Virus record (IMG/VR): IMGVR_UViG_2671180885_000005
Length of the DNA: 46,052 nt
From: a virus
Taxonomy: Duplodnaviria; Heunggongvirae; Uroviricota; Caudoviricetes
Strand: one strand, 5' to 3'
A model generated the notes under the pieces. It searched no databases. It worked only from the letters and a program-made list of their open reading frames with translations, and was not told the DNA's origin. Below, piece after piece: positions 13,621 through 46,052 of this stretch. A program made the position numbers and the translations under genes. Within the stretch, counting starts at the first letter, position 1. Each line of letters starts with the position of its first letter.

Positions 13621-13650
13621 ACAGGTTGGCCCCATATGAGGCCAACCTGT
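13621..13650. promoter_or_regulatory. perfect 11-bp-stem hairpin (ACAGGTTGGCC / GGCCAACCTGT, 8-nt loop)
   Basis: Seen directly; lies between the Q stop and the stop of the convergent minus-strand membrane-protein gene, with no adjacent U-tract on either strand. Confidence 0.4.
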
Positions 13651-14099
13651 CACAAGTGGGGGAAGATTTTTCGTAACACTAACCAACACCTTCCGAAGGT
13701 ATATAGCGAAATTATAAGGGAGGATAAGCCTAACAGTATGAATAGGAAATCAATAGGTTTGCCCGCAACAATAACATCATCAGGTAGAAACATCGCTATC
13801 AATGGAAATATACATGCGACGATGAGAGTTAACCCTGTTGAAAGTAATCTATTTACCAGAGTTGGTAACACGTTGTTTTGCTTAAGGGCATTAATTGCTC
13901 CTTCCTTATCGCTGTTTGCACTACTAAATATAGATATTGCAGCCAGAACAAAACCAAACAGGATGCCTGATATAGTCGAGAGCACCCCCGCTGTTGTGAG
14001 TACGTCAGCATGCTTCATCGGTTTAAACAGTTTTGTCGCTGCATAGGTCAACAGAATCCAGAGGACGCATTTCCAGAGAAAAGTGGCTAATTCTCTCAT
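13650..14099 (-). CDS. small polytopic membrane protein (about four predicted TM helices), cargo gene 2
   Basis: Start taken at the ATG at 14099 with GGAGG 5 nt upstream; four hydrophobic stretches (FLWKCVLWILLTYAATKLF; VLTTAGVLSTISGILFGFVLAAISIF; STGLTLIVACIFPLIAMFL; IDFLFILLGLSSLIISLYTF); 21 bp after the stop of the upstream gene. Confidence 0.6.
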   Translation of the reverse strand: MRELATFLWKCVLWILLTYAATKLFKPMKHADVLTTAGVLSTISGILFGFVLAAISIFSSANSDKEGAINALKQNNVLPTLVNRLLSTGLTLIVACIFPLIAMFLPDDVIVAGKPIDFLFILLGLSSLIISLYTFGRCWLVLRKIFPHL

Positions 14100-14120
14100 T
14101 GTGTCCTCCATGCTTGGTTA

Positions 14121-15062
14121 TTAGTCTCTGCTAGCGAGCTCATACTGTGCAAGATAGTTCGCGTTATCAATTTTAGCAGATATCATCGCCGTTCTGATAT
14201 CAGAATCGGATGGATAACCGCTTTTGACAATGATTGTCTTTGTACTGACCAATACTTGGTCAAGTAGACTTTTGGGCGTTCTATTGGATGGCTCTGTTAC
14301 ATCAATTTTTTTAATTTTTAGACCTCCAGAACCTTTTGGAAAAAGTTCAAGTAGTTCCTTAATAGCATCGGTGACAGAAGTTTTTAGATAGTTAAACCCT
14401 TGTTTTTTCGGGCGAATCCGACCTCGCATATTTAATCTTAGATGCGACCCGCCCATACCAACAACCATGTCAATAATTTCATTAGCTAAAGGGTTTTTAA
14501 TCTTATAATTAGCTTTGTTAAAGTTTCTTGGAGCAGCAACTATAAGATCGAAACTACGTAGGATATTTCCGTCCTCAAGCAGTTCCTTCATGCTCTCTTG
14601 TTTCCAAATGGCTTCAAAAGTGACGCTTTTTAAATCAGTTTTGTTATACAAAATGAATGCCAGATCATTTACTTTGGGCCCTATATGGTTGAGGGTCATA
14701 GCTAATAAGTCCGTTTCGTAGTAATAGATAAAATATGTTCTTTCAACTACAGAATCTTTATCATTTAAAGGAATTGTTCTCTCACTACCTGTAGCATCCT
14801 CGATGAACGGTAGTAGGCATTCCCTTCTCCACGATACGTAACCAAAGTAACATTGCAGTGTGGTATCTTTTTGAAGAATAACTAACTTTAACCCTCGATT
14901 TGGGGTGTATGTTGTGTAAGTTATTGGAAAAGTTACAGTATCTGCTGTGGTCATTTGCTCAAAGGCTAGTTTTGCAGCAGATGTGCCATCTTTTTTGCTT
15001 CCATTACCAGTGAAAAAACCAACTCTCACTCGCCTGGTTTTATTCTTATTTTCTGTACTCAT
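14121..15062 (-). CDS. hypothetical soluble protein (313 aa), cargo gene 1
   Basis: Long AT-rich ORF antisense to the phage late genes, in the Q–holin moron position; no family recognised by eye. Confidence 0.6.
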   Translation of the reverse strand: MSTENKNKTRRVRVGFFTGNGSKKDGTSAAKLAFEQMTTADTVTFPITYTTYTPNRGLKLVILQKDTTLQCYFGYVSWRRECLLPFIEDATGSERTIPLNDKDSVVERTYFIYYYETDLLAMTLNHIGPKVNDLAFILYNKTDLKSVTFEAIWKQESMKELLEDGNILRSFDLIVAAPRNFNKANYKIKNPLANEIIDMVVGMGGSHLRLNMRGRIRPKKQGFNYLKTSVTDAIKELLELFPKGSGGLKIKKIDVTEPSNRTPKSLLDQVLVSTKTIIVKSGYPSDSDIRTAMISAKIDNANYLAQYELASRD

Positions 15063-15688: not shown

Positions 15689-16171
15689 ATGCAGGTACTA
15701 AATTCCCAGCGTAAAGCTTTCCTCGATATGGTGGCATGGTCAGAAGGAACGGATAACGGGCGACAACCGACACGTAACCACGGTTATGACGTTATTGTCG
15801 GAGGTGAACTGTTCACTGATTACTCCGATCACCCTCGCAAACTTGTCACGCTAAACCCGAAACTTAAATCAACAGCCGCAGGACGTTATCAGCTTCTTTC
15901 ACGCTGGTGGGATGCTTACCGTAAGCAGCTTGGGCTGAAAGACTTCTCTCCAAAAAGCCAGGATGCTGTGGCATTGCAGCAGATTAAAGAGCGTGGTGCT
16001 TTACCGATGATTGATCGCGGCGATATCCGTCAGGCTATTGATCGTTGCAGCAATATCTGGGCGTCATTGCCGGGCGCTGGTTATGGTCAGTTCGAACATA
16101 AGGTTGACAGCCTGATTGAAAAATTCAAAGAATCGGGCGGAACGGTCAGAGAAATTCAGCTATATGAGTAG
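15689..16171 (+). CDS. R: endolysin (lambda R-type lytic transglycosylase)
   Basis: Near-identity to my recollection of lambda R ([58 protein letters not shown]...). Confidence 0.95.
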
Positions 16172-16628
16172 AGTAACTGCGATTCTGTCCTCTCTGGTTA
16201 TCTGCATCATCGTCTGCCTATCATGGGCTGTTAATCATTATCGTGATAACGCCATCGCCTACAAAGAACAGCGCGATAAAGCGAAGGAAAAACTCAGCCA
16301 GGCGAACGCCACCATTACTGAGATGCAGCAGCGCCAGCGTGATGTTTCTGCGCTCGATGCGAAATACACCGGAGAACTTGCAAATGCTAAAGCAACTATT
16401 GAACAGCTTCAGCGTGATGTTGCTGTTGGCACTAAGCGGCTGTTCCTCGCCGCTAGTTGCCCGAGAGTGCAATCAACGACCATTACCACCAGCCTGGATG
16501 ATGCTACCGCCCCCCGACTTACTGACACCGCTCAACGGGATTATTTCACCCTCAGAGAGAGAATTGAAATCAGTTATAAACAGATAAGAGCATTGCAGGA
16601 CTATATCTCTAGTCAGTGTGAAAACTAA
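16164..16628 (+). CDS. Rz: i-spanin Rz
   Basis: [31 protein letters not shown]... closely resembles lambda Rz; start overlaps the R stop. Confidence 0.9.
16384..16587 (+). CDS. Rz1: o-spanin Rz1 (lipoprotein, embedded in Rz in the +1 frame)
   Basis: [20 protein letters not shown]... (lipobox LSGC) then proline-rich [26 protein letters not shown], as in lambda Rz1. Confidence 0.8.
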
Positions 16629-16709
16629 AATTGCTTTCGATGTATGGATCTGGACATCTTTTTTTTCTACTATGCTGACTGAGAATTGAAACGTATATGG
16701 ATATTCTAT

Positions 16710-17468
16710 ATGAAAAGAAAAAAATTAGAAGGTCCCGGGTGTGAATCATATGAAGGGTTAGATGTTGAATATTATATTGATTCCGAAACGGGGGAATTTA
16801 AAGCGGTTTATACATTCAATAATGAAATTGTAGATCGCATAAAATTGAGTGGGCGTATTGCCGATAGAGCATCTTCACTGTCCCTAATTCATAGGGACTT
16901 AAAAAGTGCTAAAGAGTGGTACCAAATAGCTAATGAACTGGCAGGGAGAAACGAATTAAGGACAGATGGCAAGTTATACGGGAATATACTTGATCTAGAT
17001 TTATCAAGTGAAATTAGAGCGTTATTTGTGGCAAGCCTAACGTTTTATGGTAAAGCTTTCTCTGAAACTAAAGGGAGAAAGTTAAAGATGGAGCGTGATT
17101 GGCTTGATTCTGAATATTTTGGGTTGCATGACTGTATTATTAACTACAGGCATAATTTTGCAGCACATAGCGGCAACCAAGACTATGAGTCAGCAGAAAC
17201 TTCATTGTTACTAATAAGGAAAAATGGGAAAACATTTTATCAAGCAGTGACAGATAGAAAACAACTGAGCATGATTGGTGTCGAGGACGAGCATGTTGAT
17301 ATGATTAATTTATTTGAACATGCGATACAGGTTGTTGAGAAAAAATATAATGAAACATTAGAGAGAATTAGAACCTATGTCATGCAAAAGAGTTATTCTT
17401 TTTGGTGTTTAGCTGCCACAGGGAAAGATCCCGTCAATTTAGATAAGTTAAATAAGAAGAAAAAATAA
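16710..17468 (+). CDS. hypothetical AT-rich accessory (moron) protein, ~252 aa
   Basis: ORF after the lysis cassette and before the packaging genes, with composition visibly more AT-rich than flanking phage genes; start uncertain (TTG 16686 or ATG 16710). Confidence 0.5.
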   Translation: MKRKKLEGPGCESYEGLDVEYYIDSETGEFKAVYTFNNEIVDRIKLSGRIADRASSLSLIHRDLKSAKEWYQIANELAGRNELRTDGKLYGNILDLDLSSEIRALFVASLTFYGKAFSETKGRKLKMERDWLDSEYFGLHDCIINYRHNFAAHSGNQDYESAETSLLLIRKNGKTFYQAVTDRKQLSMIGVEDEHVDMINLFEHAIQVVEKKYNETLERIRTYVMQKSYSFWCLAATGKDPVNLDKLNKKKK

Positions 17469-17503
17469 ACCTACTCTTCACATTAGTAACATTAGTAGAT
17501 GCG

Positions 17504-17536
17504 AAGCCACTAGCAATCGATGGTGGCTTTTTTATT
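17504..17536 (+). terminator. candidate rho-independent terminator
   Basis: AAGCCAC ... GTGGCTT stem followed by TTTTTTATT. Confidence 0.5.
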
Positions 17537-17547
17537 GGAGCTTACCA

Positions 17548-17898
17548 ATGCCACCACGAACCCCAAAAGCCTGCCGTGTTCGCGGCTGCCGCTCTACAAC
17601 CACAGACCCGTCAGGCTACTGCGAAAGCCACAAAAGCGAAGGCTGGAAGCAATACAAGCCAGGTCAGTCCCGTCATCAGCGCGGTTATGGTTCGAAGTGG
17701 GACGCTATCCGCGCGCGTGTGCTGAAGCGTGACAAAGGTTTATGTCAGTTATGTCTGCGTGCCGGTGTGGTGCGTGAGGCGAAAACCGTTGACCACATCA
17801 TCCCTAAAGCGCATGGCGGCACTGATGCCGACTGTAATCTGCAGAGTCTGTGTTGGCCGTGTCATAAGGCGAAGACGGCCCGTGAACGGTTAAAGTGA
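17548..17898 (+). CDS. HNH endonuclease (terminase-associated)
   Basis: Cys-rich N-terminus plus HNH motif (DHIIPKAHGGTDADCNLQSLCWPCHKAK); located just upstream of terminase small subunit. Confidence 0.8.
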   Translation: MPPRTPKACRVRGCRSTTTDPSGYCESHKSEGWKQYKPGQSRHQRGYGSKWDAIRARVLKRDKGLCQLCLRAGVVREAKTVDHIIPKAHGGTDADCNLQSLCWPCHKAKTARERLK

Positions 17899-36723: not shown

Positions 36724-36779
36724 ATTCGTAATGCGAAGGTCGTAGGTTCGACTCCTATTATCGGCACCATTAAAATCAA
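36724..36779 (+). repeat. attR: second copy of the 56-bp thrW 3'-end repeat
   Basis: Identical to 1399..1454. Confidence 0.85.
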
Positions 36780-37150
36780 ATTGTTACGTAAGATCTTATC
36801 ATTCTCCCACCAAAAAATTATCTTAATGTAACAGCTGGTGTAAGTAAATTCTATCAACGAAGATCAATCTTATCTACTGACCAAAAAGGCCTGATAGGGC
36901 TTCGCTCACTATACATCCTTGGCTGCAGGTTTAGTTGTACACCACTCCTAAATTTAATGTGTTGGCAATGTGTTCAATAAAGCTCGAACAAATTAGCTCA
37001 TTATGATCGGTTAATACTTCAACTTCTGGTTGCATGATTGTTTGTCCGTAAAAAGATAACGCGCCTGCCGGGTAGTAGCAGGCGCATTACGCAATAGGTA
37101 AACAAGGGAGGAAGTTCAGAAATGTAAATCGGGAAGGTTGTACGCAATGT

Positions 37151-37830
<680 letters not shown>

Positions 37831-37848
37831 TACAGTTCTCCACTATTG

Positions 37849-38070
37849 TCAGTTCAGGGTGATGCTCATCAGGCAGGTATAGGGCCCATTGCGGTCCTGG
37901 CGGCGTTCGGCGTATACCGCGAGGACTCCGGCGATATCCGGAACGTCCCTGCCGGTGTAATGACAGACGCTACCGTGCCACTGGTATTTGCCGGTGCAGT
38001 AGCGAAAGATTCGGGACTCAGGATGCTGGCGGTATATCGTCATTGCCCTGCGTTTACTGATAATTTTCAT
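37849..38070 (-). CDS. DUF987 protein (YkfH/YeeT-like)
   Basis: ATG at 38070 with GAGGT SD; small conserved ORF between the RadC-like and antitoxin genes. Confidence 0.7.
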   Translation of the reverse strand: MKIISKRRAMTIYRQHPESRIFRYCTGKYQWHGSVCHYTGRDVPDIAGVLAVYAERRQDRNGPYTCLMSITLN

Positions 38071-38078
38071 GTAATACC

Positions 38079-38555
38079 TCAAAGCAGACCGTGTTCTGCG
38101 AACGAATAGATTTGCCTGCCACCGACAATCAGATGGTCAGGGACACGGATATCCACCAGCTGAAGCACCTGAACCAGTCGCTGCGTGAGGGTTTTGTCGG
38201 CCTGGCTAGGTGTCGTCTCGCCGGAAGGATGGTTATGCGCGAGTATCACCGCCGCCGCGTTGAAGTGCAGAGCACGTTTGACCACCTCCCGGGGATGCAC
38301 CTCGGTGCGGTTAATCGTGCCGGTGAAGAGCGTTTCATGGGCAATCAACTGATTCTGGTTGTCCAGATACAACACCCGGAACTCTTCCCGCTCAAGCGCG
38401 GCCATATGCAGTCGCAGCCATTCACGTACGGCGTGGGTAGAGGTGAAGGCTACGCCGGGCTCATGCAGGTGGCGGTCCAGAGCCCTGAGCGCCCGCTGAA
38501 TGAGACGCCGGTCCTGTGGCGTCATCTCGCCGGGTAAAAAGGAAAGCTGTTTCAT
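38079..38555 (-). CDS. RadC-like JAB-domain protein (YkfG/YeeS-like)
   Basis: JAMM motif region (HNHPSGETTPSQAD). Confidence 0.85.
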   Translation of the reverse strand: MKQLSFLPGEMTPQDRRLIQRALRALDRHLHEPGVAFTSTHAVREWLRLHMAALEREEFRVLYLDNQNQLIAHETLFTGTINRTEVHPREVVKRALHFNAAAVILAHNHPSGETTPSQADKTLTQRLVQVLQLVDIRVPDHLIVGGRQIYSFAEHGLL

Positions 38556-38570
38556 CTGTTGCTCCTTCGG

Positions 38571-39029
38571 TCAGTCGATAATACGCAGAATGGCGTGAGC
38601 CTCTGGATGTTGCATGGCATACTCCCGCAGGCGGTAATAGTGTGCGGTCATCGCGTCACATTCTGTACGGCAGGCATGGTGGCTATACGCAATCAGGCAG
38701 ACAGCAATACCTGCTGCTTCTGCACTCATTTGGGCATCGTTACCGTTCAGGCAGTTAAACAGACGCCATGTCTCATCGTTGTCAGGCTCGGGGGACATAA
38801 ATGCGCCGCCATTGCTGAGGGTGTAGAACGACCAGATACCACCGCTGTAGCCCTCACAGAAGCGGTCCATCCAGGCGAAGATATGCGGCTCCAGGAGTAG
38901 CCACTGCGGGATAGCGCCAAAGTACTGTGGCCAGAAATCGATACGCTGTTCATCGGGGACCGGCGTGACGGTCAGTTCAAATTCGGGTTGGTTAGCGGGT
39001 GCGAGGTCGTGCTGCGTCTGTGTTGTCAT
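38571..39029 (-). CDS. antirestriction protein (YafX/YfjX-like)
   Basis: ATG at 39029 after GGAGA; conserved position and sequence of the island antirestriction family. Confidence 0.75.
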   Translation of the reverse strand: MTTQTQHDLAPANQPEFELTVTPVPDEQRIDFWPQYFGAIPQWLLLEPHIFAWMDRFCEGYSGGIWSFYTLSNGGAFMSPEPDNDETWRLFNCLNGNDAQMSAEAAGIAVCLIAYSHHACRTECDAMTAHYYRLREYAMQHPEAHAILRIID

Positions 39030-39126
39030 GGGTATGTCTCCGTCAATAAAAACGCCAGCGGCGATGGCTGGCGTATGGGGATATAAAGTGTGTTCGGGGA
39101 GGTGAATGCGGGTAAATGCTTCGCGA

Positions 39127-39366
39127 TCAGCGGGTGGCCGTGTCTGTACGGATGCCTGAGGTGCGGATATAGCGGTTAAGACCTTCACCGGCATCCGGCT
39201 CAAAGTTCCATGCCCGCCAGACCATCCGGCCTTCAGTATCACGAACCACCAGACGGAAGTGACTGCCCTGGTCGTCTTCGAGTGTGATATTGCTGTACGT
39301 GGTAGTGACCGCTTGCGCTTGTCTCCGGGTGAAAGGCCCCGGTGGCAGCAACACGGATTGGGTCAT
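39127..39366 (-). CDS. DUF905 protein (YkfF-like, 79 aa)
   Basis: ATG at 39366 after AGGAG; [43 protein letters not shown]... matches my recollection of YkfF. Confidence 0.75.
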
Positions 39367-39442
39367 TTTCGGGCTCCTGATAAAAGAAAACCCCGGCAGC
39401 CTGCTAGCTGTCGGGGTGGATTTGCTGGGGAAGATACTACTA

Positions 39443-39910
39443 TCAGTCGTTGCTGCAGTCTCCGAGAGTGGACAGAACTTTCTCAGCGTTCTTCCGGTCC
39501 GCAGTGAAGGTCCCTGCTTTGTGGTCATTGACGTAGACGTCGAACTGCCCGGCCTCAGAGATATTGCTGATGAAGTCAAACCAGGCGTTATCGCCGTTAC
39601 GCCAGCCCAGGCTGGACGGAATAATGTACTGCTGGTGATCCATCACTACGGTGATAGTAGTGTCGTCATCGTGCGAACTGACCATCTTGTCATCGGCAAG
39701 GGTAAGAAAGACTGAATGCTGATAGAAACCATTCTGGTCCGGGTTCCCTGTGCAGTTGATGGTAAACGTCTTTCCGCTGGCTTCGGTCACGCTGTATTCC
39801 GTATTGCCCTGACCGTAACCCTGCTGCCAGAACCCCGGGATAGCAGAGGCATTAAAGCTCGCGAGCAGTACACCCGCCAGCATAAACCGACTTAGTGAAA
39901 GTATTGTCAT
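39443..39910 (-). CDS. secreted protein of unknown function (YkfB-like)
   Basis: 155-aa ORF with N-terminal signal peptide ([23 protein letters not shown]). Confidence 0.7.
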
Positions 39911-39938
39911 TCTTGTCTCCTTTGTCGTTGTTTTATTC

Positions 39939-40376
39939 CTAGTTCTCAGGGTTTGAGGGTATCAGCAGTCGCCCCATCAGTTTGCCGTCATGGGCGTACT
40001 CAAAGTATTTTTCTTTGGTATACGGGTCCGTCACCTCCTGGTATTCCAGTTTGATGTTATCGGCAATACACAGCGCATTCATCAGTGGCTGGACGGTTTT
40101 TTCCTGCATATCCACGAGGTAGTAGTAACTGCCATCCTCGCAGCCATCGGGCGACTGGCGGGTACGTAAAACCTGCAAGGTGGGACCGGATAAGTAGTCA
40201 ACCTGTGACCATTCTTCGCTGACATCATCCTGGTGGCTGACCACATCACTGAAACGCGGTGGGGTAAGGTCCTTAAATTTACTGATGGCCTTCAGGTCAT
40301 CACTTCTGTCATCGCATGCGATGAGAAACAGAGTGGTGGCAACCAGCGCCAGCAGAGGCAGTGTTTTACGTTTCAT
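39939..40376 (-). CDS. lipoprotein (YafY-like)
   Basis: N-terminal lipobox MKRKTLPLLALVATTLFLIAC. Confidence 0.7.
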   Translation of the reverse strand: MKRKTLPLLALVATTLFLIACDDRSDDLKAISKFKDLTPPRFSDVVSHQDDVSEEWSQVDYLSGPTLQVLRTRQSPDGCEDGSYYYLVDMQEKTVQPLMNALCIADNIKLEYQEVTDPYTKEKYFEYAHDGKLMGRLLIPSNPEN

Positions 40377-40612
40377 TATTTTTTTCCTGAAATCAGACGA
40401 ACCACTTTGGCAAAGACATAAATGCCCACGAAAATACCCACCGGCACGCCGACGAACGGTGTCAGCGCGACACTGGCAGCACCGGCTGCGCCACCTCCCG
40501 TCAGCAGTGCGGCAACAGTGGCAAGGGTCAGGGCCGCGAGACTGTCGGACACCCCGGTTTTGTTCAGAATGATGACGATGACAACAATGGCGATAATGGC
40601 AATAACGGGCAT
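40376..40612 (-). CDS. small membrane protein (78 aa; YkfL/YpjK-like)
   Basis: ATG at 40612 after GGAGG; highly hydrophobic. Confidence 0.55.
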   Translation of the reverse strand: MPVIAIIAIVVIVIILNKTGVSDSLAALTLATVAALLTGGGAAGAASVALTPFVGVPVGIFVGIYVFAKVVRLISGKK

Positions 40613-40652
40613 AGGGCTCCTCCCTGTTGCCGGGTTGATAACAACGCTTACG

Positions 40653-41354
40653 CTATTCTGGTGGGCTGTCGGCCGGAACAAACGTAAGCAGTGACTGCTG
40701 GATAAAGCGAAAATGGGGTAAGGACTGAATAAAGCCCGGGTCTTCAACAAGACGACACAGACTGTCGTTACGCCGGAAAGTCTCCTGCAGGGGCTGAACC
40801 AGATGGATTTCATCCAGGGAGAATACGGCGATATGTCCGTCGTGCTCTGCCACCAGATACCAGGCCTGCTGGTGGATAAGTAACCGGCAGGGAGCCAGCC
40901 GCTCACAGCGTCGCCCCTCGGCAATCAGAGTCACCCGCCTGCGCCCGGTAATGGCCTGAATCAGTCGCCAGAAAGACAATGCGCCTGATGGCGAAGGAGA
41001 CGGACTGGCGGGTGCGATTACGCAGGGAGACTCATCGCACATCAGCAGTGCGTTTACCAGACGACGGTCAAAGCCAGGGAAAAGACCGGCCATCCCGCTG
41101 CGGTGGGCAAAGATAAGCACGTCGGGCACCATCTGCGTCTCACTGCCCGCAGTGCGTAAGCGGCAATATCCGGACTGATACTCCAGGTCCAGATACATCA
41201 GCCGCTCACGAAAATCACGCCGCAGCGTGCGCACCGACACACCAAACTCAGCGGCAAGCTTACGCACACTCAGCGTTTCCCCTGCCACCAGACGGCTGAT
41301 TATCAGTGACAGCCTGACAGCCAGCCGGTCATGGCGGCGTTCTGCCTGTGTCAT
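40653..41354 (-). CDS. HTH plus WYL-domain transcriptional regulator (YfjR-like)
   Basis: N-terminal HTH ([21 protein letters not shown]) and a C-terminal WYL-like region ([15 protein letters not shown]). Confidence 0.65.
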
Positions 41355-41570
41355 GAGACGTTCTCCGTGAAAGTTAACTGACTGAAAATGATGTGATTAC
41401 TTTAAAGAGGGGGTCGGACAGGGTATGGACACCACAGAAACTATTTTTCATTTCTGCAAAAGCCAGAGGCAGCGGGGGTTACAGGCCTTCCCTCGGTGAG
41501 TGAGGACCGTCAGCACGGTGCGATGCGGACAGGTGGTGTCCGATATTAACAAAGCAGCAACATTAAACGG

Positions 41571-42407
41571 TCACTGCAGTTGCGTGAGCAGGGCTTCCGC
41601 CATCACCCACAGTGCCCGGTTAAGTTTCACGTCCCCGTCGATACCGCGAACGGCACGGGTATGTGACCGTCCTCCTTTGGCATTACGGCCACTGAGCCCG
41701 CCCTTAATCAGGTTCTCCTGAATACGCTGGTACGTGGTCCACAGGTCATTGCTCTCATCCTGCCAGCGGCGAGGGGAGAGGATCTGCGATTCAGTCACCG
41801 GCTGGTGGTCTTCACCAAAGCGGTATGTGAGGGCGGCTTTTGCCAGTGCCTGCTGTGCCGGGGGTGGCAACAGCAACGACTGCATGGCATCCCGTTTCTC
41901 CTCCACCCGGTCAAAAATCCCCAGCACCTCATACGCGCCTTCAATCACCTGACTTACCACGTCCCCCTTGTGTGGCACCCGCACCTCGCCAAACGACTCA
42001 CCGCAGACGAGCCCGTTCTGACAAACCGCACGAAATAAACCCGGCAACATCTGGTACGAACTGGTGCCATCATGGGAGTTGAGCAGGATAATTTCTGGTA
42101 CCTGTTTACCGGTAATCTGCCCCTCCCGACGAAGGCGTAGCATGTGTTTTGTGTGCTCGCGTCGACCCGGGTCGCGTACCCGGGTCTGACAGGCAAAGAA
42201 CGGCTGGAAGCCTTCGCGCTGCAGGCTGTCCAGCAGGGATATGGTGGGTATATAGGTATAACGCTCACTACGGGATGCGTGTTTGTCCTCACTGAATACA
42301 CTGGGCACCACGCGAAACAGCTCTTCGCGGGTTAACGGGCGGTCGCGACGGATAAGATTTGCTGCGCCAAAGCGCGAAGCCAGACGGGTCATAAGCAGAC
42401 TCCTCAT
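41571..42407 (-). CDS. DUF932-family protein (YafZ/YfjQ-like)
   Basis: 278-aa ORF in the conserved position after the GTPase. Confidence 0.75.
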   Translation of the reverse strand: MRSLLMTRLASRFGAANLIRRDRPLTREELFRVVPSVFSEDKHASRSERYTYIPTISLLDSLQREGFQPFFACQTRVRDPGRREHTKHMLRLRREGQITGKQVPEIILLNSHDGTSSYQMLPGLFRAVCQNGLVCGESFGEVRVPHKGDVVSQVIEGAYEVLGIFDRVEEKRDAMQSLLLPPPAQQALAKAALTYRFGEDHQPVTESQILSPRRWQDESNDLWTTYQRIQENLIKGGLSGRNAKGGRSHTRAVRGIDGDVKLNRALWVMAEALLTQLQ

Positions 42408-42483
42408 AACGGGAAAACAAATAAAAGGGATCCCCGTCGCATCGGCGACAGGGGCAGGGAAGTAACAGGGATGGGTTAAATAC

Positions 42484-43347
42484 TCAGAAGAAGAAATCCC
42501 AGACGGCGCGGGCCACTGACACCACCGTGGTGCGCACGGCCTGAATGACAGCCCGTACCGGGGCGGGTATCAGGGGAAAGGCACTGATGCTATCGAGTAC
42601 GGCCCCGACGGTTTCACCAAAATCGCTACGAGCCTGTTCCCGGACTACCGTCGTGCGAAAGGAAGACTGGAGTTGCGACACCACCGGGCTGGTGGCCTCA
42701 CGTGGCAGGCACTTAATCATTCGCTCGGCCATCACCCGCAGTCCCCACTGAAGACGGACCGACACGGCACACACCGGATGTACGGGCTGGAACAGCTCAT
42801 GCAGCAGACAGATTTTACGGCTGATATTCTGCTTCTGCGCCGTGGACAACGGTCCCCCACCGCTGGTGGGTTCGGCCTTATCCGACTGGCTGATAACAAA
42901 CAGCACCTTATGCCGGTATACCTCTCCAATCACCTGATGATAAAAATGTTCATCCACCGCCAGCGCCCGGTCATCGGCCTTAATCAGCCACAGTACCAGG
43001 TCGAGGCGAGGAAGCTGTTCGCGGTACAGCGCAGCATACTCGGTATCGCGAGCACCACTTTCGCCCACGCCGGGCAGGTCCACCAGCGTCATATAGCGGT
43101 CGCCGACTTGCAGGCGAAAGCGCAGTGGCTCACGGGTACATGCAGCCACATCGCTGACCGGTGATATATCTCCGGCAAACAGGGCATTGCACAGACTGCT
43201 CTTCCCAACACCGGTTTTACCCATAATGCCGATCACTGGCTCGTAGCGGGTTAACTGATTTATCTGCTGCAATATACGTTCAGACACCCACTGTGGCAGA
43301 CCAGCGAGCGATTGCTGAAACGGCTTCAATCCTTCAGAATTGTTCAT
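42484..43347 (-). CDS. GTPase (YkfA/YfjP family)
   Basis: ATG at 43347 after GAGGAG; P-loop GKTGVGKSS and DLPG motif. Confidence 0.8.
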   Translation of the reverse strand: MNNSEGLKPFQQSLAGLPQWVSERILQQINQLTRYEPVIGIMGKTGVGKSSLCNALFAGDISPVSDVAACTREPLRFRLQVGDRYMTLVDLPGVGESGARDTEYAALYREQLPRLDLVLWLIKADDRALAVDEHFYHQVIGEVYRHKVLFVISQSDKAEPTSGGGPLSTAQKQNISRKICLLHELFQPVHPVCAVSVRLQWGLRVMAERMIKCLPREATSPVVSQLQSSFRTTVVREQARSDFGETVGAVLDSISAFPLIPAPVRAVIQAVRTTVVSVARAVWDFFF

Positions 43348-43453
43348 TACTACTCCTCTGAAAAATAATACAAAAACGGCAGAATCGTGAGATTCCACCG
43401 TTAATCTGGTATGTTCAAAGGGATGATATATATCTGAAAATTATTAACTTGAT

Positions 43454-44380
43454 CTACTTTTTGTCTTTTTTACGTGATGAAACAGCCTGCTGCCAAGCAT
43501 GCTTCATTTTCTGAATAAAGAAATATTTTTCTTCAACTCCAGTGTCCCAACTATCCATGCATGCAATGATCATCTGTATTCTCATTGCAGGGTTATATGG
43601 TTTTAAATAAAAGGGGATCATATTTTTATTTCTCAGATACTCCCAGCAATAGATAGCTTGCTTTTCATCTTTTTTATCTAGCCAGTCATAATCAGTAAGA
43701 AATGTATTATATTGCTCTAGCCATTTATCATGCAACTTACGAAAATAGGAAATTTTCTGACTTAAACTTACAGGAGCTAAATCAATAAACCTCATCAAAG
43801 TACAAATGCGTTCTTGTTCGGATGTTGTATTCGGGCTGTAGTTGTCGGGATCTGCGCCAGATGTTAAATAAAATCTACGCGAGTATTTTTCAGGTATATC
43901 TCTATTTTTTTCTTTATTGCTAGGGGAGATTCCCACCTGCATTTCGGCTTGTACTTCATCAAGTGAGAAATTTTTAATTTCATCAATGTTTATAAATTCA
44001 AAAAAGGATGCAGGAGTTGAGTTCGGGTTGTAAATATTATCTTGTGCAAAGATATTCACGCTCGAGGAGGTTTCAGGACTGATTCTGTTGTTATATATAT
44101 ACATTAAGGCAAACCACGATCCTCTATCAGAACCTTTGAAGCAATCGAACTTCTCTTTGTCAATGATTTTGTAATGGAACTGTTTTTTCAAGTAAGTACG
44201 CGCACTTTGTATTGCTTCATTATTGAATAGGAATTTAGTGTTCAATATATGATTAATGAGTTTTTGAAATTCCTCAGGCGTGTCGAAATTACTCGCCTGC
44301 TTAATGTAATCTTCGTTGTAATACAGACTCAGAACGTAAAGGGAAAAGAACTCCTCTCTCACTTCGTCATACCTAAGCAT
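43454..44380 (-). CDS. hypothetical AT-rich protein (308 aa) heading the GTPase operon
   Basis: Long ORF, visibly AT-rich; no family recognised; occupies the slot where CP4-57 carries rnlAB. Confidence 0.55.
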   Translation of the reverse strand: MLRYDEVREEFFSLYVLSLYYNEDYIKQASNFDTPEEFQKLINHILNTKFLFNNEAIQSARTYLKKQFHYKIIDKEKFDCFKGSDRGSWFALMYIYNNRISPETSSSVNIFAQDNIYNPNSTPASFFEFINIDEIKNFSLDEVQAEMQVGISPSNKEKNRDIPEKYSRRFYLTSGADPDNYSPNTTSEQERICTLMRFIDLAPVSLSQKISYFRKLHDKWLEQYNTFLTDYDWLDKKDEKQAIYCWEYLRNKNMIPFYLKPYNPAMRIQMIIACMDSWDTGVEEKYFFIQKMKHAWQQAVSSRKKDKK

Positions 44381-44829
44381 GTACCCTCCAGTGTGATATC
44401 ACATCTGTCCGATGCTTTCAAAAGTATAAATGAACCATGATGATTTGGCATCTGCAAGGTGACTGTTGACTGGTTTTTTGCTGATTTTTTAATGATAAAG
44501 TAGTGATTACTAACTGATTAGTAAGTGATTAATGGCTGGTTGCCTCCTGTGATTTTTCTGCCTCTGGTAAATTGGGGGAGAGTACTGATCAACTCACCAC
44601 TCTGAATAATTTTCATGATTGCACTCTACAAAGTTTCGACATCCGTCAAATTGTAACGGTCAGAGAACAGCGTTACACGAGGTTTTCCGTATCTATGCAT
44701 TCTTAGTTGGGTAGCTCAACTGCTCCTTCCAGATCTTTTTTTACGTCACACCCCATTCATGTGGAGGAGAAGGCGTGAACAATTAGTTATCGCCTGCTCC
44801 GGTGCTCTTCTCGCAATGGGACACTCAGC

Positions 44830-45036
44830 ATGAAAACTAAACCTGCACTACTGGAAGATGAGTTCATCGATATGAAGTTTATCACACGCCTTACTGGCCT
44901 GAGTGATAAATGGTTCTATAAGTTGATACAGGAAGGGGTATTTCCGAAACCCATTAAGATGGGTAGAGCTTCTCGCTGGTTAAAAAGCGACCTGGAGGAG
45001 TGGTTGCAGGCTAAAATTAATGATTCCAGAAATTAA
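44830..45036 (+). CDS. alpA: AlpA-family phage regulatory protein / excisionase
   Basis: FITRLTGLSDKWFYKLIQEGVFPKPIKMGRASRWLKSDLEEWL is a typical AlpA HTH. Confidence 0.8.
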   Translation: MKTKPALLEDEFIDMKFITRLTGLSDKWFYKLIQEGVFPKPIKMGRASRWLKSDLEEWLQAKINDSRN

Positions 45037-45440
45037 ATATTTTGGACTGTGTTTATCAAATTCCATGCCCTTTTTGCTGCTTAATTTTAAATGACACTCT
45101 GATCATGCACCGTGATTGAAATAAGTTATAGCCACCCCTTAATCATTTTTTTCAGACGACATTAACTTCGGAGTAAATAATTTAACACAATGAAATATCA
45201 AACCGCATCTGGCCTGAATGTTGAGTATTAATACGTGACGGATTGTTAATATATATCAGTACATAAACCCCAACATTCCAGTAATACACACCTACGCAAT
45301 ACACACCAAGCAATTTAGTCAGCATCACCCAACTAACATCCAACACAAACTCAATAAGCCAGATTTGATACCACCTAATTACCTCAACCATCGCGGGTAA
45401 GGTTCCGTCCTGCCCGATATTCATATCACAGGAATCTATT

Positions 45441-46052
45441 ATGCTTAATGATATTTATCTTGACCAACGTCATGCCCCATTCAATACAACGTATTTGCAA
45501 CGGATGCTGGGTGTAATTGATAACGCTATAGCACAACACCCAAGGACAATGGCTGTCCGTGTCGATCTACGTCTGCCTGATGACAACTGTAATAGGAATA
45601 GTGGTCTGATATCCCGTTTCATTGAATCGCTTAATGCAAAAATCGATGCTCGGTACCGAAATAAAATAAAGAATGGCATCAGGAGCTACCCATGCCAGTT
45701 GCGTTACGCCTGGGTTCGGGAAGTGGGAGAAATAAACGAGAAGTCCCATTACCACATGGTACTTTTCGTGAACAAAGACACATTCAATGGACTTGGGAGC
45801 TATGGAGAAGGGGGAACGGGATTAGCCAGCCTGATACGTGAAGCCTGGCTGAGCGCTTTGCAACTAGGCCCTTACCCCGAATACCGAACGTTGGTCCACA
45901 TCCCGGACAACCCATTGTATTACCTGGACGTCAATAATTTAGACTACAAAACGGTTTACGATAAGCTCACTTTCCGTCTGAGCTACTTTGCGAAAGAGCG
46001 CACCAAGTCATACAGCCGGAATGAACGCTCGTTTGGCTGCAGTCAGTCCTGA
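45441..46052 (+). CDS. YagK/YfjJ-family (inovirus Gp2-like) protein
   Basis: 203-aa ORF ending at the window edge with a stop codon; position after alpA as in CP4-type islands. Family assignment is from memory and weak. Confidence 0.5.
   Translation: MLNDIYLDQRHAPFNTTYLQRMLGVIDNAIAQHPRTMAVRVDLRLPDDNCNRNSGLISRFIESLNAKIDARYRNKIKNGIRSYPCQLRYAWVREVGEINEKSHYHMVLFVNKDTFNGLGSYGEGGTGLASLIREAWLSALQLGPYPEYRTLVHIPDNPLYYLDVNNLDYKTVYDKLTFRLSYFAKERTKSYSRNERSFGCSQS

Follow-up and report, generated by a model that had tools for sequence, protein, structure and literature searches.

HEPN domains bear an Rx4-6H signature in which the residue after the arginine is mostly N, D or H, and a second acidic residue, in an Ex3[KR] context in helix 2, is optional (Anantharaman et al., PMC3710099). 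For the prophage gene considered here the closest functional likeness is to HepS (STM14_3211 of Salmonella Gifsy-1; PDB 9OIJ/9OIK), an anticodon nuclease (PMC13043305) that acts in abortive infection as a solo HEPN protein, is encoded by a lambdoid prophage and has no partner. The members of the HepS family are under 250 aa and HepS has its Rx4H at residues 100-105, whereas the protein described here has 252 aa, two beta-hairpin insertions and an Rx5H at 147-153, and its gene is in a different slot. A search for homology to HepS gave no PDB sequence match at E ≤ 10 with a 2026 copy that should include 9OIJ, and the LT2 Gifsy-1 record has no ORF with R100x4H105.

In ApeA, DARNA (PD-T7-3), AbiV, PD-T4-2 and Tha a dormant HEPN RNase and a sensing region are combined in one polypeptide, and the same logic is predicted for the present protein. 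Such defences are activated by a phage product, tRNA or other RNA is then cleaved, and abortive infection follows. Tha of S. aureus prophages is, like the gene in question, prophage cargo. However, the PADLOC and Pfam models of all five are unmatched by the cargo protein. DARNA, with 456 aa, has a C-terminal Pds5-like domain and ApeA an N-terminal sensor domain, whereas the cargo protein is predicted to consist only of a HEPN core, two beta-hairpins and short C-terminal helices. HepT (SO_3166; PDB 5YEP, also 8XDJ), of the HepT/MntA type VII toxin-antitoxin system, is shorter (~130 aa against 252 aa). It is always paired with an MNT antitoxin, which AMPylates it. Since an MNT neighbour is present at 0 of 44 loci of the cargo family, the gene is not a HepT/MntA module, and the Pfam HepT-like/DUF86 models are also unmatched. 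Judged by its sequence, the cargo protein is in no described HEPN family.

For position the nearest comparison is a moron. Lambda bor lies between Rz and the packaging genes, and Bor and its E. coli counterpart Iss are transcribed in lysogens. The gene described here shares their slot, and in both cases the gene is AT-rich, dispensable and replaced by alternative cargo in relatives. Bor and Iss are small outer-membrane lipoproteins encoded on the opposite strand, whereas the present gene is on the late-operon strand and its product is predicted to be a soluble 29-kDa enzyme.

The Rz-to-HNH slot and its cargo

The window, i.e. the whole 46,052-nt stretch of IMG/VR record IMGVR_UViG_2671180885_000005, is E. 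coli chromosome with proA, tRNA-Thr (thrW, 1369-1444), a 35.4-kb prophage and a CP4-6-like island. The prophage lies between two copies of a 56-bp direct repeat (1399-1454 and 36724-36779). It belongs to the SfI/SfII/SfV type: its early and lysis genes are lambdoid, its head module is HNH-TerS-TerL-HK97, and its tail is contractile. It sits in thrW beside proA, not in ssrA, and the restriction-modification genes of E. coli strain R12 are absent from the window. The features of the slot are:

16164..16628, + strand: Rz (i-spanin), bordering the cargo slot on the left; Pfam Phage_lysis at 2.1e-40, 'lysis protein' in E. coli R12
16417..16587, + strand: Rz1 (o-spanin), inside Rz in another frame; lipobox MLLLALSGC
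16629..16709, + strand: upstream intergenic region of 81 nt, with an in-frame TTG at 16686 as a possible alternative start
16710..17468, + strand: cargo gene of the phrog_8440 family; soluble protein, predicted HEPN-like fold
17148..17168, + strand: codons of R147-H-N-F-A-A-H153, the predicted catalytic Rx5H (HEPN-type) motif
17480..17497, + strand: tandem 9-bp repeat (acattagta twice) in the 3′ untranslated region, as read from the sequence
17503-17536, + strand: intrinsic-terminator-like hairpin and T-run closing the cassette; 10-pair stem at 17503-17530, then TTTTTTATT
17548..17898, + strand: HNH endonuclease, bordering the slot on the right and opening the packaging module; Pfam HNH at 5.3e-15

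Downstream of HNH is a gene for a P27-family TerS and then one for TerL. The ORF listing has an intact ORF at 16686..17468 (+), 260 aa when counted from the TTG. From the first ATG, at 16710, the CDS encodes 252 aa (29 kDa), and the RefSeq CDS for WP_001407090.1, a hypothetical protein, occupies the same interval in near-identical E. coli genomes. An earlier, sequence-only reading of this DNA had put a ~252-aa ORF between Rz/Rz1 and the HNH and terminase genes, and the identity of the flanking genes by Pfam and ORFs agrees with it. It had also counted the gene among the most AT-rich of the window, as it is: its GC is 0.353 and its GC3 0.308, second lowest among 62 scored CDS intervals with a median of 0.53, a rank that is approximate because the intervals are those of the strain R12 annotation and R12 is collinear with the window only over ~12-35 kb. 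The flanking lysis genes have a GC of 0.49 and the packaging genes of 0.55.

In related phages and prophages the same slot is occupied as follows:

Phage SfV: empty; 26 nt from the Rz1 stop to the HNH start, without a hairpin
SfIV: 290 nt of non-coding DNA
vB_EcoM-689R6: an ORF of 168 aa, followed by a hairpin and T-run of its own
SfI and E. coli LSC52: DUF6979 and a small ORF
E. coli MLI107: iss (bor homologue), on the opposite strand

Since the slot is empty in SfV and has other contents in other relatives, the window gene is inserted cargo, and the proposal that an accessory gene had been placed between the spanin and packaging genes stands. The gene is a prophage accessory cassette, probably acquired horizontally. 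In its insertion and base composition it resembles a moron as Hendrix and Juhala use the word, for a self-contained cassette placed where related phages have two neighbouring genes: it is inserted between genes with 26 nt between them in SfV (Rz1 and HNH) and has a deviant GC (0.353 against 0.49 and 0.55 in the flanks). Among 5426 complete E. coli genomes the flanks have matches in 3776, and the cargo DNA is found in the same context in 23.

The occupation of this slot by bor in lambda and by iss in E. coli MLI107 is what speaks for a surface conversion or virulence factor of the Bor/Iss/Lom type. Such a factor is nonetheless highly improbable here. The protein begins with a hydrophilic stretch, its Kyte-Doolittle hydropathy over 19 residues reaches at most 1.08, it is predicted to fold as a soluble bundle of helices, and its family is not specific to pathogens, being found in Vibrio inoviruses and environmental Beta- and Gammaproteobacteria. 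Because the protein has neither signal peptide nor membrane segment, a Bor/Lom-type role was ruled out. There is also no lipobox context, and lysogenic conversion of the bor/lom type, which the sequence-only reading had offered, does not fit a predicted soluble helical enzyme. [A lipoprotein was considered on account of 'GPGC' near the N-terminus, with the Cys at residue 11, and discarded: no hydrophobic region precedes it and the Cys is not conserved.]

The phrog_8440 family and its HEPN-type motif

The cargo protein matches phrog_8440, a family of 'unknown function', at 1.8e-116. Neither it nor 53 family members have a meaningful match in Pfam, NCBIfam or PADLOC, and for the cargo protein PADLOC-DB v2 gave 0 defence families at E ≤ 1. 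Thus the earlier statement that no family could be recognised is correct for Pfam, NCBIfam and PADLOC and not for PHROG. No literature was found for the accession WP_001407090.1 or for the PHROG id.

A word-indexed search gave 197 homologues, in Citrobacter, Burkholderia, Paraburkholderia, Pseudomonas and Vibrio, all annotated as 'hypothetical' and none with a Pfam domain. A profile search of 1.84 billion representatives gave 874 clusters at E ≤ 1e-3 and 437 at ≤ 1e-10, so that at 50% identity the family has at least 874 clusters. The best 150 of the 874 match in a single stretch and are at most 292 aa, mostly ~220-260 aa. The copies in E. coli differ at 2 sites only and are, for this reason, uninformative for dN/dS. 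Values were taken instead from more distant homologues and are in the range 0.10-0.18 (0.18 against an 89%-identical homologue and 0.15 against a 77%-identical one). The gene is also still intact in a decayed prophage remnant and is found on a 100-kb plasmid. The gene is conserved and under purifying selection.

In an alignment of 237 members D63, Y113, H140, R147 and H153 are invariant, and W70, K115, R123 and G155 are almost invariant, being kept in 234-236 of the 237. At the core is the motif Y-R147-[H/N/D]-N-F-A-A-H153-S-G. The spacing R147-x5-H153, with both residues present in 237 of 237, falls within the Rx4-6H of HEPN proteins. At 148, just after the arginine, 179 members have H, 52 have N and 6 have D, with nothing else occurring there, and the residue so has the polar character seen in HEPN proteins.

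An AlphaFold2 model of the cargo protein (pLDDT 85.8, pTM 0.82) has helices at 49-80, 96-115, 134-152 and 198-224 and two short C-terminal helices. It also has beta-hairpins at 17-36 and 160-185, and helices 2 and 3 are separated by an insert of 18 residues (116-133). The fold so predicted is a four-helix bundle. Since helix 3 of the model spans 134-152 and the motif 147-153, the motif ends that helix; as modelled, it is therefore at the C-terminal end of helix 3, which is the canonical HEPN placement (PMC3710099). No conserved acid is present in helix 2 (96-115), where the canonical acidic residue would be. The invariant acid is D63 in helix 1, in an E61-x3-R65-like context.

Solved structures gave 0 hits by sequence, either with the single sequence or with the family profile (PDB; profile E ≤ 10). 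A Foldseek search of PDB and BFVD had no hit with E below 0.1, and no HEPN model was matched at E ≤ 1 by the query or the 53 members. Among 48,164 chains the closest structural neighbour of the model is a HEPN toxin. HEPN families are mutually undetectable by HMMER, so the absence of a profile match argues for a new family and not against the fold. Our reading is that phrog_8440 is a new, sequence-isolated, HEPN-like family, with Rx5H spacing and predicted beta-hairpin decorations.

The silence of Foldseek and the lack of a HEPN profile link are also what would be expected if the protein were not a nuclease and were instead a helical bundle with conserved His, Arg, Lys and Asp that binds a ligand or hydrolyses a nucleotide or signal molecule. 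Conserved D63, Y113, K115, R123, H140 and E160 are outside the classical HEPN signature, and HEPN-related ring nucleases degrade cyclic oligoadenylates, not RNA. However, HEPN is matched on three counts together, by the R-[HND]-x4-H pattern, by its invariance and by its place in helix 3, and it was a HEPN toxin that came first among the structural neighbours. A protein that is not a nuclease is, on this evidence, rather unlikely.

Neighbours, terminator and transcription

Neither a conserved partner nor an antitoxin gene accompanies the family. In an all-against-all BLAST of the ORFs within 7 kb at 44 loci, no neighbour family was present at more than 4, and those that recurred are lambdoid Q and lysis genes. 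The family is solo, without a partner gene. This bears on the possibility that the protein acts as toxin in a toxin-antitoxin or addiction module that has escaped recognition, its small-ORF or RNA antitoxin having been missed, and that serves to stabilise the prophage and not to defend against phage. That no neighbour family is conserved across the 44 loci counts against such a module, as does the flanking of the window gene by Rz and HNH only, with gaps of 81 nt and 79 nt. There is no type III-like repeat array upstream; the sole repeat is the 2 x 9-bp one downstream, one copy of which is dispensable. It is missing from the plasmid copy of the locus (L024), and four 1492-bp matches (H30, H31, H33, H34) are 9 bp shorter than the window. 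A toxin with an overlooked antitoxin is accordingly improbable.

The cassette ends in a hairpin and T-run, as the sequence-only reading had noted. The 10-pair stem at 17503-17530 has a folding energy of -19 kcal/mol (z = -2.2 against shuffles), and the structure lies in the 79-nt gap between the cargo gene and HNH. By count, terminator-like sites in the region are not above expectation, with 2 found and 2.9 expected. The same hairpin is kept beside the 89%-identical homologue (locus L025). In SfI/LSC52 and 689R6, with + strand cargo in the same slot, a different hairpin precedes a similar T-run; at the iss locus of MLI107 the T-run is as in the window and the stem is weak. The window shares the T-run and the GGAG ribosome-binding site before HNH with MLI107 and SfI/LSC52, and the hairpin was not found in the empty slot of SfV. 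Terminator function is deduced from the position in the 79-nt gap, from the conservation in L025 and from the presence, with other cargo, of hairpins that the empty SfV slot lacks. The comparison supports a terminator that travels with the cassette. [A weak hairpin with a T8 at 16640-16667, just after Rz, was discarded since it is not conserved in L025.] After the ~60%-identical homologues in two further loci (L019 and L021) there is no terminator. The gene there ends 10-19 nt before HNH, which leaves no space for one and suggests co-transcription with the late operon.

A promoter of its own, the other half of the moron model, was not borne out. In the 81 nt upstream (16629..16709) a promoter scan found nothing and a looser scan gave as best an 8/12 match to sigma-70, which overlaps the start codon, and no match of at least 9/12 was found upstream of the gene in the window. 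Five homologous loci have weak 9/12 sigma-70 sites 30-42 nt upstream of the gene.

These features bring forward the main rival to a defence role, namely that the gene belongs to the late operon and serves the lytic cycle of the phage itself, with an RNase or other enzyme translated from the late, Q-antiterminated transcript. It might shut off the host, act in counter-defence or, at a late stage, exclude co-infecting phages. It is the main rival because of the lack of a credible promoter upstream in the window, the spacing in L019 and L021 and the constant late-operon strand. In five enterobacterial backgrounds, at 50-100% identity, the gene is at the lysis-to-packaging junction on the late-operon strand, though the lysis cassettes differ and the terminases are of both HNH/P27 and lambda Nu1/GpA types. 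This co-orientation in the enterobacterial clade, and the abutting of HNH in L019 and L021, count against immunity of the lysogen, and expression may therefore be late-lytic and not lysogenic.

Against a late lytic function is the absence of the gene from SfV and the unrelated cargo in the slot of relatives, from which it follows that the phage does not need it. Its rarity (23 of 5426 E. coli genomes) points the same way, and a terminator specific to the cassette is meaningful only with some transcription that is not Q-modified. Elsewhere the family is found where genes expressed in lysogens are typically located: beside int, in an early region on the opposite strand, at the accessory end of an inovirus, and in plain chromosome. 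In ~19 of 39 IMG/VR contigs the position is an integrase one (between int and xis in ~15, beside other integrases in 4), and in coliphage 2H10 the family gene is also between int and xis. This site and the lysis-to-packaging junction are the two main ones of the family in temperate phages. At three loci in two backgrounds of Pseudomonas prophages it is on the opposite strand in the early-left region, and at a P. chlororaphis locus it is among unannotated genes in both orientations. In a Vibrio inovirus it is just 3′ of zot, where the depositors' note is 'endonuclease', and in Burkholderia a family gene is on plain chromosome. The GC of the gene is 12-19 points lower than that of its flanks in E. 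coli, Citrobacter, Pseudomonas and B. gladioli and ~10 points lower in Paraburkholderia; in Vibrio it is not lower. Service in the phage's own late cycle is, on balance, not the likely explanation, though a serious one.

Known defence systems are close by in some cases. A complete Lamassu is immediately upstream of the family gene at one locus (L062), a complete HEC-03 immediately downstream at another (L041), and Kiwa is within the same prophage at L019. The Lamassu and HEC-03 loci are among 31 chromosomal ones taken from GTDB species representatives, whose flanks also gave a single strong hit to PD-Lambda-3_B; clear known systems are beside ~3 of the 31. Most PADLOC hits among the 139 flanking proteins come down to cross-matches of a few generic ATPases and helicases. 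With only Lamassu, HEC-03 and the one PD-Lambda-3_B hit clear, the defence-island signal is modest.

Proposed function and its meaning

The explanation that we favour, tentatively, is that the gene encodes a stand-alone HEPN-type RNase, carried as prophage cargo, which causes abortive infection as do HepS or ApeA. Of the two options in the sequence-only reading, defence or lysogenic-conversion cargo, it is defence that gains from the invariant motif, the solo occurrence, the cargo positions and the Lamassu and HEC-03 neighbours; bor/lom-type conversion does not.

By analogy with HepS, ApeA, DARNA and HepT, the protein would dimerise and its two R...H motifs would then form a composite, metal-independent RNase site. 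The same analogy suggests that it would be dormant in the lysogen until activated by a component of an infecting phage. Activated protein would cut tRNA or other RNA, translation would stop and the infection would be aborted, with protection of the lysogenic population. The beta-hairpins at 17-36 and 160-185, together with D63, Y113, K115, R123, H140 and E160, may be for substrate binding or for sensing the trigger. In lytic growth Q-modified RNA polymerase would pass the hairpin at 17503-17536, and because of this read-through the packaging genes would still be expressed despite the cassette. Transcription of the cassette in the lysogen, if any, would be kept out of those genes by the hairpin. 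As it would act only on unmodified transcription, its presence indirectly suggests that some transcription of the cassette does occur in the lysogen.

Two variants would give a new functional class, and it is fairly doubtful that either holds. In one, a HEPN-like enzyme of the enterobacterial late operon would have a role in the phage's own lytic growth, cleaving RNA of the host or a competitor at the onset of packaging, or sensing the phage's own late proteins. In the other, the constellation D63, Y113, K115, R123, H140, R147, H153 and E160 would define a chemistry other than the RNA cleavage of classical HEPN proteins.

Since prophage-borne solo HEPN abortive-infection proteins are already established, a defence role would not be very surprising. 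The gene is small, single and easily cloned, and the hypothesis is cheap to check. If the prediction of a stand-alone HEPN-type RNase is true, phrog_8440 would be a widespread single-gene defence family, with at least 874 clusters at 50% identity, spread over prophages of enterobacteria, Pseudomonas, Vibrio and Burkholderia, inoviruses and defence islands. Current defence finders are blind to it, as PADLOC, Pfam and NCBIfam have no hit. An Rx5H variant of HEPN with beta-hairpin insertions would join HepS, ApeA and DARNA among the self-contained HEPN sensors. The Rz-to-HNH/terminase junction of SfI/SfV- and lambda-like phages would then be a second cargo hotspot, the other being the Q-to-holin slot, in which relatives carry Kiwa.

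Signals flanking the cargo gene

Of the promoter-like sites in the region, the best falls a short way upstream of Rz, inside the endolysin gene at its 3′ end. Transcription starting there would run through Rz/Rz1 and the AT-rich cargo gene (phrog_8440), and end at the hairpin at 17503-17536.

16104-16133, + strand: promoter-like site, TTGACA-N18-AAGAAT (10/12)
16640-16667: weak hairpin with a 5-bp stem (GATGT...ACATC) and T8 after it, directly past the Rz stop codon
17480-17497: tandem 9-bp repeat (acattagta twice), between the cargo gene's stop codon and the terminator

The weak hairpin following Rz is probably non-functional, to judge from sequence comparison, since its 3′ arm is mutated in the locus with the 89%-identical homologue (L025). 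One copy of the 9-bp repeat is absent from the cargo gene copy on plasmid pHNAH212872-2; H30, H31, H33 and H34, the four other 1492-bp matches among complete E. coli genomes, are also 9 bp shorter. The hairpin at 17503-17536 is unaffected by the loss.

Carriers of the block and neighbours of family members

The plasmid copy (L024; NZ_CP104632.1, 77.9-86.4 kb of a circular record of 100.9 kb) has the block as in the window: Q, both cargo islands, lysis genes, cargo gene, HNH and terminase. It may be a phage-plasmid, or a prophage integrated in a plasmid. The prophage in E. coli CFSAN061772 (L023, locus 354-1670) is decayed, with portal, tape measure and integrase truncated and with intact lysis genes, cargo gene and HNH. 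Just upstream of this remnant is a DarT/NADAR (DarTG) toxin-antitoxin defence pair.

Complete defence systems directly adjoin two chromosomal family members: Lamassu (LmuA-LmuC-LmuB) in Chromohalobacter (L062, 6444-9800) and HEC-03 in Massilia, beside rpoBC (L041, 10760-12612). One ORF just upstream of the family member in an Ignavibacteriota MAG (L068, 1460-4163) has a HEPN-like motif, 'FRNPTAH'. In the Pseudomonas prophage loci (L013-L015, 8766-9288) the family member is followed on the same strand by two small ORFs, of 77-81 and 63-75 aa; no other lineage was found to have them, which makes them unlikely as a partner for the family in general.

Prophage ends at thrW

1399-1454 and 36724-36779: exact 56-bp direct repeat, made up of the 3′ portion of tRNA-Thr (thrW) plus the bases that follow
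~36780-46052: CP4-6-like island, directly after attR

A 35.4-kb prophage of SfI/SfV type, adjoining proA, is bounded by the two copies of the repeat, which mark its attL and attR. Since the island starts immediately past attR, two mobile elements are in tandem at thrW. The island, 100% identical to E. coli LCP17S3_I1, encodes the ykfI/yafW type IV toxin-antitoxin pair, an antirestriction protein, a JAB-domain protein, yfjR, DUF932, a GTPase-family protein and an inovirus Gp2-family protein.

The slot between Q and holin

13650-15062, − strand: second AT-rich cargo island, GC 0.38-0.41

This island, with the Q antiterminator on one side and the holin on the other, has two genes on the opposite strand from the late operon, the first for a 313-aa protein (phrog_7651) and the second for a 153-aa protein that has several hydrophobic stretches (phrog_8552). 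Neither protein has a Pfam match above threshold, nor any in PADLOC or PDB. The pair is found, independently of the phrog_8440 gene, in 73 of 5426 E. coli genomes. In relatives the same slot is occupied by Kiwa (KwaA/KwaB) in a locus with a 60%-identical homologue (L019), by a DUF4747 pair in L022, and by NA37-type proteins in L025 and E. coli strain MLI107. Together phrog_7651 and phrog_8552 form a candidate defence system of two genes.
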